Under the pieces are notes generated by a model. That model made no database searches and had not been told where the DNA came from. It was given only the letters and a program-made list of their open reading frames with translations. Positions 15,090 through 25,637 of a stretch of DNA of 64,000 bases are shown here, one piece after another. Every line of letters begins with the position of its first letter. Positions within the stretch are counted from its first letter, which is position 1. Position numbers and translations under genes: made by a program. The stretch is from sequence record KM657822. One strand, given 5' to 3'. Source of the stretch: Escherichia phage vB_EcoM-VpaE1.

Positions 15090-16442
15090 ATGTGGAATCC
15101 AATTGTTAATGTAGATATTACATTGAACACCGCAGGAACTACAAGAGAAGGTTTTGGTTTGCCACTATTCTTAGCTTCAACAGATAACTTTGAAGAAAGA
15201 GTGCGTGGCTACACTTCCTTAACTGAAGTTGCTGAAGATTTCGATGAGAGGTCTGCTGCATATAAGGCTGCTAAACAACTTTGGAGTCAGACTCCTAAAG
15301 TAACTCAGCTTTATATTGGTAGACGTGCTATGCAGTACACTGTATCAATTCCTAATGCTGTTACTGAAAGTACTGACTATTCAATTACTGTAGCTGTTGG
15401 TGGTGGAATTTCTCAACCATACCAGTACACAGCACAAGACTCAGACACTGCTGAGAACGTGTTGCAACAGTTTAAAACACAGATTGAAGCTGACCCAACA
15501 ATCAAAGATAAGGTTTCTGTGAACGTAACTGGTAGCAATGGTTCTGCCACAATGGTTATTACCAAAGCTGGTGATAATGACTTTGTGAAAGTAACAACTA
15601 CAGCACAGACTGTATATATTGCAAGTACAACTGCTGATACAGCATCAACTGCTCTGGCAGCTATTGAAGCTTATTCTACTGACTGGTATTTCATTGCAGC
15701 AGAAGATAGAACTCAACAGTTTGTCTTAGCAATGGCTTCTGAGATTCAGGCTCGCAAGAAAATCTTCTTTACAGCTAACTCCGATGTAACAGCACTGCAA
15801 GGTACAGAGTTAGCCAGTGCAAATGATGTTCCAGCACAGCTTGCTAAGAGTATGTATACTCGCACAGTTTGCTTGTGGCATCACACAGCGGCAGAAGATT
15901 ATCCAGAGATGGCATACATTGCTTATGGTGCTCCATATGATGCAGGTTCAATTGCTTGGGGTAATGCTCAGCTAACTGGTGTAGCTGCTTCTCTACAGCC
16001 AGCTAATAAGAGACCTCTGACAAGTATTCAGAAGTCAGCTTTAGATGCACGTCACTGTAACTTTATTGACCTTGATGGTGGTGTTCCAGTGGTTCGTAGA
16101 GGGATTACTTCTGGTGGGGAATGGATTGATATCGTCCGTGGTGTTGACTGGTTAGAATCAGACCTGAAAACTTCTCTGAGAGACTTGCTAATTAACCAGA
16201 AGGGTGGTAAGATTACTTATGATGATACTGGTATTACCCGTATTCGTCAAGTCATTGAAACCTCTCTACAAAGAGCAGTCAACAGAAACTTCCTGTCATC
16301 TTACACAGTTAATGTTCCTAAAGCCTCTCAAGTTGCTTTGGCAGACAAGAAAGCTCGTATCCTGAAAGACGTTACCTTCTCAGGTATCTTAGCAGGGGCT
16401 ATCTTGGATGTTGACTTGAAAGGTACAGTGGCTTACGAATAA
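15090..16442 (+). CDS. putative tail sheath or major tail structural protein
   Basis: 450 aa ORF immediately upstream of tube-like gene, chaperone pair and tape measure. Confidence 0.35.
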   Translation: MWNPIVNVDITLNTAGTTREGFGLPLFLASTDNFEERVRGYTSLTEVAEDFDERSAAYKAAKQLWSQTPKVTQLYIGRRAMQYTVSIPNAVTESTDYSITVAVGGGISQPYQYTAQDSDTAENVLQQFKTQIEADPTIKDKVSVNVTGSNGSATMVITKAGDNDFVKVTTTAQTVYIASTTADTASTALAAIEAYSTDWYFIAAEDRTQQFVLAMASEIQARKKIFFTANSDVTALQGTELASANDVPAQLAKSMYTRTVCLWHHTAAEDYPEMAYIAYGAPYDAGSIAWGNAQLTGVAASLQPANKRPLTSIQKSALDARHCNFIDLDGGVPVVRRGITSGGEWIDIVRGVDWLESDLKTSLRDLLINQKGGKITYDDTGITRIRQVIETSLQRAVNRNFLSSYTVNVPKASQVALADKKARILKDVTFSGILAGAILDVDLKGTVAYE

Positions 16443-16457
16443 TAGAGGTAAATTGGA

Positions 16458-16904
16458 ATGGCTATGTATCAGCAATATTCCCCTAAAGACGTTGTATGTA
16501 GCTGGAATGGTATTGCCATTGAAGGCTTTGCCCCAGACTCATTCTTACGTCTACAGAGAACATCACCACTTGTGACACCAGTCGTTGGTGCAGGTGGTCA
16601 GGTTGCTCTGACAAGAAATGCAGACAAGACAGGTACTATTGAGATTGAGCTAATGCAGACTTCTCTCTCTAACCAGATGCTTTCTGCAATTCAAGCTAAA
16701 CAAGACAATATGGAACTTGAAGAAGATATCTCTTCTAACTTCGTAATCTACGACCCATCAGGCTCTGTTCTGGCAACTGGTATTAATGCTTGGTTGCAGG
16801 AGTTACCACAGATTGAACTTGGTCGTGACCAGAACTCTAAAACTTGGATTTTTGGTTGTGAGAAGCTAGACTACACTTCTACAATTCCAGCGTCAAGTGT
16901 TTAA
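16458..16904 (+). CDS. putative tail tube protein
   Basis: 148 aa ORF followed by a strong terminator, as for an abundant structural gene. Confidence 0.4.
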   Translation: MAMYQQYSPKDVVCSWNGIAIEGFAPDSFLRLQRTSPLVTPVVGAGGQVALTRNADKTGTIEIELMQTSLSNQMLSAIQAKQDNMELEEDISSNFVIYDPSGSVLATGINAWLQELPQIELGRDQNSKTWIFGCEKLDYTSTIPASSV

Positions 16905-16916
16905 TAAATCCTATAA

Positions 16917-16949
16917 GGGGGAGACTTTAAAAGGTCTTCCCCTTTTTTG
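16917..16949 (+). terminator. rho-independent terminator
   Basis: GGGGGAGAC-tttaaaa-GGTCTTCCCC followed by TTTTTTG. Confidence 0.55.
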
Positions 16950-16977
16950 TTTCTTTTAAAAGTATTAAGGAATCACA

Positions 16978-17376
16978 ATGAAAACAGAATCTAGAGTAAT
17001 TAATGGCAAGAAAGTAAATATCGTTCTGCTTGGGGCAAGAGATGGTATTAAGATGTCTATGAAGTTGGGTAAAATTGTTGTCCCAACTTTTGCACAGATG
17101 CTATCAAGTCTGACTGACAAGGGTAAGAAAGAAGCTCCAATGGTTCCATTTAAAGAACTTGTTGAAGCTTGTTTTGACAGAATTGAAGAAATTAACCTTG
17201 AAGAGATGGCTACCTTATTATTTCAAGGGGCAACTGTTGACGACTTCCCACTTAATATTGATACGTACTTCCAAGCAAACTACGGTGAGTTTATTGATTA
17301 CTTAGCATTTGCGCTGGAGGCAAACTTCGGAAGTTTTTTCGAAGCAAGCATTTTCAAAAGCCTAACTTCTCAGTAA
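16978..17376 (+). CDS. tail assembly chaperone
   Basis: 132 aa ORF directly upstream of tape measure; slippery heptamer T_TTT_TTC at 17334-17340. Confidence 0.5.
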   Translation: MKTESRVINGKKVNIVLLGARDGIKMSMKLGKIVVPTFAQMLSSLTDKGKKEAPMVPFKELVEACFDRIEEINLEEMATLLFQGATVDDFPLNIDTYFQANYGEFIDYLAFALEANFGSFFEASIFKSLTSQ

Positions 17377-17378
17377 AC

Positions 17379-17617
17379 ATGGGTAACACTCTACAGACAC
17401 CACTAACTGATGCTGCTGTAGAGGCAACCTATGAAGAAGCAGACGAGATGAAATTTGTGCTTGCTATTTATGGTATGGAAGGGTGTAAAGAAACACTTGA
17501 CCAACTCTTTGCTATGACATTCTCTGATTTATTATCATTGAGACAATTTCTTGAAATTCAGAGGTCGTATAAAGAGGAAATTGCTTACAACGAACTTAGA
17601 AGAGCAGGAAAAATGTA

Positions 17618-17618
<1 letters not shown>
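17379..17618 (+). CDS. tail assembly chaperone extension (likely -1 frameshift product)
   Basis: -1 frame is open from the slippery site into this ORF. Confidence 0.4.

Positions 17619-25637
<8,019 letters not shown>

Follow-up and report, generated by a model that had tools for sequence, protein, structure and literature searches.

The tail assembly chaperone gene of this Felix O1-like myophage very likely uses a programmed -1 ribosomal frameshift of the lambda G/GT type. The signal is a slippery heptamer T_TTT_TTC (U_UUU_UUC in the mRNA), located within the window (the whole analysed stretch of 64,000 nucleotides of Escherichia phage vB_EcoM-VpaE1, sequence record KM657822), and a -1 shift on it is predicted to yield a 213-aa fusion (...ANFGSFF|RSKHFQKPNFSVNMGNTLQ...) in place of the 132-aa chaperone. 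The site belongs to a textbook class and is already known, having been annotated at the same place in sister genomes. The features of the locus are as follows:

15090-16442: tail sheath gene (phrog_205).
16458-16904: tail tube gene (PF11681 / phrog_280).
16915-16954, + strand: intrinsic-terminator-like hairpin and T-run in the tube/chaperone intergenic region (hairpin at 16915-16944; 13-pair stem with 6 GC pairs, then TTTTGTTTCT).
16967-16971, + strand: AAGGA ribosome-binding site, 6 nt 5' of the chaperone ATG, by direct reading; a ribosome-binding site stands at the equivalent position in Citrobacter phage Michonne.
16978-17376, + strand: zero-frame tail assembly (tape measure) chaperone, 132 aa, the putative short abundant product ('G' equivalent).
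17298-17376, + strand: overlap of the 0 and -1 frames, the only positions where a -1 shift could join both ORFs.
17316-17320, + strand: SD-like GGAGG, a candidate upstream stimulator by its 13-nt spacer to the heptamer and its conservation.
17334-17340, + strand: slippery heptamer, its position and frame read from the sequence.
17340-17618, + strand: -1 frame extension ('T' equivalent), 92 codons from CGA at 17340 to TAA at 17616-17618.
17618-19846, + strand: tape measure gene (phrog_4036, E 0; PF20155 TMP_3, E 3.8e-17).

The window belongs to a Felixounavirus (98.7% nucleotide identity), and across positions 16400-18200 it is 98-99% identical to more than 200 Felixounavirus genomes, i.e., Felix O1-like myophages of Escherichia and Salmonella. 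The product of 16978-17376 was assigned to Phage_TAC_15 (PF21822; E 1.7e-19, 71 bits against a Pfam gathering cut-off of 22, spanning profile positions 1-124 of 127) and to the tail assembly chaperones of phrog_1613 (E 2.9e-48). Its AlphaFold model (132 aa, pLDDT 77.8) gave no significant match when compared with the PDB by Foldseek (best E 1.2), and a HMMER sequence search of the PDB with the chaperone came back empty, so that its membership of a chaperone family rests on Pfam and PHROGs. The annotated ORF at 17379-17618 is the distal part of the -1 extension; it matches phrog_4963, 'tail assembly chaperone' (E 2.8e-55), and its 79-aa product is identical to Felix O1 Q6KGH9. With a Dit-like baseplate protein gene beyond the tape measure gene, the chaperone ORF pair sits between the tube and tape measure genes, which is the lambda G/GT-type arrangement. 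In Meda and Michonne the counterpart of the hairpin at 16915-16954 carries a terminator annotation, and in the window this hairpin probably reduces transcription of the chaperone and tape measure genes, and with it their expression, compared with the sheath and tube genes. An Rfam scan of 16850-17750 returned no match at the slippery site, and its weak, sub-threshold matches all fell on this terminator hairpin.

Counted from the ATG at 16978, the zero-frame codons across the site are GGA (17329), AGT (17332), TTT (17335), TTC (17338), and GAA (17341). TTTTTTC thus occupies 17334-17340 with the phase T_TTT_TTC, 12 codons 5' of the zero-frame TAA (17374-17376), just as the initial annotation had placed it near the end of the first ORF. 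That annotation had also described the -1 frame as open from there into 17379-17618 and up to the start of the tape measure gene, and this holds as well: the last upstream stop in the -1 frame is the TGA at 17295, and from 17298 no further stop follows until the TAA at 17616-17618, whose final A is also the first base of the tape measure ATG at 17618 (TAATG). The +1 frame is closed.

In the proposed mechanism, most ribosomes would read through 16978-17376 and release the 132-aa chaperone, while a minority would move back one base with tRNA-Phe on UUU in the P site and on UUC in the A site (17335-17340); the slipped tRNAs would re-pair on UUU UUU, and translation would resume at CGA (17340) to give the 213-aa fusion ending at 17618. 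Because UUU and UUC are decoded by one and the same tRNA-Phe (anticodon GAA), both tRNAs should be able to re-pair cognately after the -1 slip. By analogy with lambda, we infer that the N-terminal part shared by the two forms binds (coats) the tape measure protein, that the tail tube protein is recruited by the C-terminal domain encoded in the -1 frame, and that the proportion of short to long form is set by how often ribosomes slip. The motif is of a kind known to be efficient in E. coli, where U_UU.C ranks second among tetramers, H_HH.U_UU.Y heptamers belong to the most efficient ones, and U_UU.U_UU.C is frameshift-prone, at >0.1% even without stimulators (PMC4066793). The window also carries 25 tRNA genes clustered at 1080-5917 on the + strand, including a tRNA-Phe(GAA) at 4917-4992 whose anticodon is the same as that of the host tRNA-Phe reading both slippery-site codons.

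Taken by itself, the observation in a single genome is only suggestive. In-frame heptamers of the form X_XXY_YYZ occur 73 times in 72 long ORFs of the window (17,890 codon positions), a frequency of 0.41% per codon, which gives a chance of ~10% that any such heptamer falls in the 26-codon overlap. Moreover, the -1 frame remains open for at least 70 codons past the stop in 26 of the 72 genes, long open -1 frames being common since neighbouring genes often lie in that frame. Both counts are what one would cite for the reading that a slippery-looking heptamer simply happens to fall in the short overlap. The site at 17334-17340 is the only in-frame TTTTTTN in the 72 long ORFs (~0.15% for that motif), and the comparative data put it well beyond chance. 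The initial annotation had tied its reading to conservation of the heptamer in relatives, and the heptamer is kept in every frameshift-type relative examined, over a GC range of 35-66% and down to a protein identity of 23%, and is lost exactly where a separate long-form gene exists (described below). We therefore regard coincidence as extremely unlikely.

The comparison covered relatives at increasing distance. TTTTTTC was found in frame within the overlap in 33 of 33 close-to-moderate relatives (3 from GenBank and 30 from IMG/VR; chaperone identity from 100% to 39%), with -1 extensions reaching 65-80 codons past the zero-frame stop. Another 39 loci, more distant (23-50% identity, GC 35-66%), came from a profile-based scan. 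Across loci L061-L102, all 42 carry an in-frame TTTTTTC, or TTTTTTT in 7 cases, and their -1 extensions run for 34-93 codons versus only 2-39 codons for the +1 extensions. For part of this distant set (L064-L102) the retrieval pattern included the SFF peptide; conservation of the peptide is therefore partly ascertained there, whereas the choice of codons is not. Two further loci (L108 and L110), found by a protein search independent of the SFF pattern, carry the heptamer as well. A genome-contig scan using the chaperone alignment yielded no relatives.

Two phages of the Vequintavirinae, CR3 and Av-05, have the heptamer as well; they were reached via tblastn at ~27% identity, and their preceding codon is Cys TGT. 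In these rV5-like genomes, Cronobacter phage CR3 (L105, 1848-1854) and Escherichia phage Av-05 (L106, 1773-1779), T_TTT_TTC lies at a CFF motif and the -1 frame enters a downstream 'hypothetical protein', the frameshift being unannotated in both records.

Codon choice at the site points in the same direction as its presence. In 41 of 41 distinct contexts the two Phe codons follow a codon with T in third position (AGT, TCT, or TGT) and the first of them is TTT, while the joint NNT+TTT expectation from each genome's own codon usage is 0.02-0.06 at 60-66% GC and 0.12-0.5 in the remaining genomes. A T-run kept against codon usage in this way reflects nucleotide-level selection on the heptamer. Among six Felix-like lineages, synonymous-site identity reaches 0.94 at GSFFEASIF versus 0.32-0.70 in most of the gene, and the nucleotides of the block AAGTTTTTTCGARGCAAGCATTTTCAAAARCCT (17331-17363) hardly vary, even in relatives with a TAC protein identity of only 39-48%. 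By its presence, its codon choice, the constraint on its synonymous sites, and its loss in the two-gene case, the site and the two-ORF arrangement are kept beyond what conservation of the protein would require.

The two-gene case is a prophage of Buttiauxella noackiae (GCA_000737905.1, contig JPRU01000001.1; L107, 3001-3986), which has two tandem Phage_TAC_15 genes instead of a frameshift, with TMP_3 and Dit-like genes downstream of the chaperone pair. The first gene encodes a 126-aa short chaperone (P0086) and the second a 201-aa protein with the C-terminal 'T' domain in frame. Its alignment with the predicted fusion is unbroken over fusion residues 81-208 and spans the junction (E 5e-13). 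The NFGSFF peptide is likewise encoded in the short gene, but by the non-slippery codons TCA TTC TTC; the T-run is thus gone where the long form has a gene of its own. The pair appears to represent an evolutionary replacement of recoding by gene duplication.

These data also bear on whether recoding is needed at all. In the alternative, the two ORFs would be separate genes, with 17379-17618 initiating by itself, for example by termination-reinitiation at TAAACATG, and the heptamer would merely encode Ser-Phe-Phe. The ATG at 17379 is only 2 nt past the zero-frame stop, a proximity that makes some independent translation of the -1 ORF possible, and two separate genes are what most GenBank records show. 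In addition, mass spectrometry of particles of the Shigella phage Sf14 (Mooglevirus; pelleted lysate) detected gp42, 'Tail assembly chaperone?', encoded just before the tape measure gene, and not gp41, 'Tape measure chaperone?' (PMC11821841, Table 1); this amounts to the downstream and not the upstream gene product once gp41 and gp42 are matched to the ORFs of the window, a match made by gene order only. The presence of gp42 in particles would not be expected in a lambda-like case, where virions retain neither form of the chaperone.

Against separate initiation, no SD precedes the ATG at 17379 (taacttctcagtaaac); the second ORF lies in the -1 frame, overlaps the end of the first, and lacks a convincing start of its own. 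In relatives that retain the -1 domain this ATG is absent or displaced: the first -1-frame ATG or GTG comes at codon 39 in L061, 59 in L062 and L063, ~37 in L064-L070, and 62-69 in several others, none exists in L102, and ATA replaces ATG in L036, a Felixounavirus contig. In many relatives there is consequently no start codon before the conserved -1 domain, which would be reachable there only by recoding. The selection on codon choice at the heptamer, the synonymous sites frozen from the heptamer to the ATG, and the linker segment 5' of the ATG that the Buttiauxella in-frame homologue includes all speak against it too. We hence consider two separate genes to be a very unlikely explanation; in this genus, initiation at 17379 may contribute a certain amount of free C-terminal domain, yet the family-wide pattern cannot be accounted for in this way.

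With a programmed frameshift as the preferred reading, we looked at its candidate stimulators. The SD-like GGAGG upstream of the heptamer lies 14 nt (as GAGG) or 15 nt (as GGAG) from the motif's second nucleotide, and SD-like sequences placed 6-17 nt before that base have been experimentally shown to be stimulatory (PMC4066793). An SD-like motif occurs at this fixed distance in 35 of 40 distinct relatives versus a background of ~13% in the same loci, and the Glu codon at this element is GAG in 36 of 41 contexts, even though GAG makes up only 20-35% of the Glu codons in low-GC genomes. The element is absent from some relatives that keep the heptamer (L061-L063, L071, L092, and CR3). Since its conservation is confounded with that of a Glu-Ala/Val peptide, the role of the element is only plausible: GGAGG, 13 nt upstream of the heptamer, would pair with the 16S rRNA and stimulate the -1 shift, and in this capacity it is a better candidate than a downstream structure.

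A downstream stimulatory structure, the search for which the initial annotation had suggested as a check, did not emerge from folding in the Felix O1-like group. Folds of 17341-17440 and 17300-17400 gave nothing stable near the heptamer, the 60 nt downstream of it, folded in all relatives, had in the window a minimum free energy of -3.4 kcal/mol (z +0.8) and hence no stable structure, and RNAalifold on 8 Felix-like sequences returned a consensus of -1.6 kcal/mol with no covariation near the site. No stem-loop or pseudoknot was therefore seen 5-9 nt after the motif, where dnaX/IS911-type signals have theirs. A hairpin at 17378-17433 (z -2.2) was considered and rejected, as it begins 38 nt away and is not conserved. 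By contrast, the high-GC relatives (L082-L101, from IMG/VR) have a 9-bp GC-rich hairpin, CCGCGAGCG...CGCTCGCGG, which starts ~8 nt past TTTTTTC (~8-35 nt), has z scores of -2.3 to -4.7, and differs between relatives by G-U wobble changes only. It looks like a classical 3' stimulator of the type directed at ribosomes, so that the stimulator seems to differ between lineages, the Felix-like branch being without one.

The dnaX and IS911-type signals offer a close comparison for this layout. As there, the heptamer is preceded by an internal SD-like sequence within 6-17 nt (here 14). The dnaX and IS911-type signals also use a downstream hairpin, whereas none was found at the site in the window, where the role of the SD-like element is suggested by its conservation. 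The family may accordingly serve as a clean system for the study of -1 frameshifting stimulated by an SD-like element only.

A bolder, joint reading of these elements is one that we entertain with reservation and think unlikely as a whole. According to it, a cassette of SD-like GAGG, a 13-nt spacer, and U_UUU_UUY would be fixed across Phage_TAC_15, spanning the Ounavirinae, the Vequintavirinae, and uncultivated phages of 35-66% GC, and would dictate the invariant [S/C]FF of the protein. As a second part, the nearly unchanging 20 nt from the end of the heptamer onwards (CGARGCAAGCAUUUUCAAAA, 17340-17359) may serve, in the Felix O1-like branch with its lack of a downstream hairpin, as a stimulator of another kind, constrained beyond what dual coding demands. 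As a third, the C-terminal domain of the frameshift product would be retained in the virion, at which the gp42 detected in Sf14 particles hints and which, if true, would differ from lambda.

The same 213-aa fusion could in principle be reached one step earlier, by transcriptional slippage, if RNA polymerase were to add one U on the T6 run (17334-17339) in some transcripts. The product would be identical (AGU UUU UUU CGA...), the site is a homopolymer, and the runs of relatives vary from T6 to T8 (T8 in L073). Still, bacterial RNA polymerase slips efficiently on runs of about nine or more, compared to which T6 is short, and in most lineages the run is held at exactly T6 followed by C and has not been lengthened. 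The flanking elements, i.e., the SD-like element and the hairpins located 8 nt downstream in high-GC relatives, are moreover of a kind that acts on ribosomes. A weak hairpin at 17314-17330 lies just 5' of the run, and an upstream stem-loop can favour polymerase slippage (PMC5009743); when the 26 nt 5' of the heptamer were folded in 33 distinct relatives, however, this hairpin was insignificant (mean z -0.6). The short run, the upkeep of T6C, and the ribosome-directed flanking elements together argue for ribosomal slippage, and we infer that the slip is ribosomal in nature, a polymerase origin being quite improbable.

The upstream hairpin had been flagged by a terminator scan, and as a conserved element it was discarded, given its mean z and the inconsistent registers in which it forms among the relatives; the pairing at 17314-17330 arises largely because GAR (Glu) and TTY (Phe) codons are reverse complements. 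A different kind of variation is seen in the Felixounavirus Escherichia phage CL1 (OK040806.1; L103, 957-963, equivalent to 17334-17340 of the window), which has T7 in place of T6. The 213-aa fusion is thereby in frame, the record annotates one 'tape measure chaperone' CDS and lacks a short form, and it was the only single-piece tblastn match among the matches listed. Either the T7 is a sequencing error in the homopolymer, or the variant is real and produces the long form only; the record, with its fusion in frame, can be cited in favour of transcriptional slippage insofar as it indicates a run prone to length errors at some level.

The initial annotation had likened the locus to the chaperone frameshift arrangement conserved in tailed phages, and gene order, the relatives, the in-frame fusion homologue, and the annotations in Meda and Michonne all agree with this. 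Shared with lambda G/GT are the two overlapping ORFs directly 5' of the tape measure gene, a -1 slip late in the first ORF that gives a short abundant and a rare long form (in the window, by prediction), and a signal that does not depend on a strong downstream structure. In lambda the heptamer is G_GGA_AAG, and the window differs from it in having U_UUU_UUC, a chaperone of the Phage_TAC_15 family, a contractile-tailed myophage as its bearer, and a candidate SD-like stimulator upstream. Among myophages, frameshifting chaperone pairs located between the tube and tape measure genes were reportedly described for P2 (E/E') and Mu (gp41/42) by Xu et al. 2004; the chaperones of these two phages belong to protein families different from Phage_TAC_15. 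For lambda, the ratio of short to long form is ~30:1 (PMC5009743), the frameshift having been described by Levin, Hendrix and Casjens 1993 and by Xu, Hendrix and Duda 2004, 2013, and 2014 (as cited in PMC5009743).

Within the Ounavirinae, the genome announcements of phages Moogle, Michonne, and Mijalis report a translational frameshift for the tape measure chaperone, with reference to Xu et al. 2004 (PMC4319497, PMC4591319, and PMC5543628). The gene, heptamer, and junction are the same in Meda, Michonne, Moogle, and Mijalis as in the window, with nothing substantive to tell them apart, and the frameshift annotations of these four phages rest on analogy and report no experiment. Likewise, our literature search on Felixounavirus/Felix O1-like and rV5-like phages found no protein, proteomic, genetic, or reporter demonstration of the fusion, for whose production the in-frame Buttiauxella homologue gives indirect support only. 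What the present analysis adds is modest and leaves the understanding of tail assembly unchanged: U_UUU_UUY, usually with an SD-like element 13 nt upstream, recurs across a wide and compositionally diverse family, a 3' hairpin is lacking in the Felix-like branch, and an in-frame second gene appears to replace the frameshift in Buttiauxella.

The value for annotation is more immediate, as GenBank holds ~300 Felix O1-like genomes, most of them (including most other Felixounavirus records) with two small, separate genes at the chaperone locus and only some with a joined product, the correct product being the 213-aa fusion joined at 17340. Only 132-aa entries came up as cluster representatives when a protein database was searched with the fusion, and the Meda fusion was recovered by exact look-up only. 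In Salmonella phage Meda (MH586731) a joined CDS is annotated as 'Tape measure chaperone frameshift product', and the fusion that we predicted from the heptamer in the Meda DNA equals this entry (AXY86324.1, 213 aa) letter for letter, while the fusion of the window differs from it at 2 residues. In Michonne (KT001916), the annotated 'ribosomal slippage (47149)' maps to the fourth T of the run.
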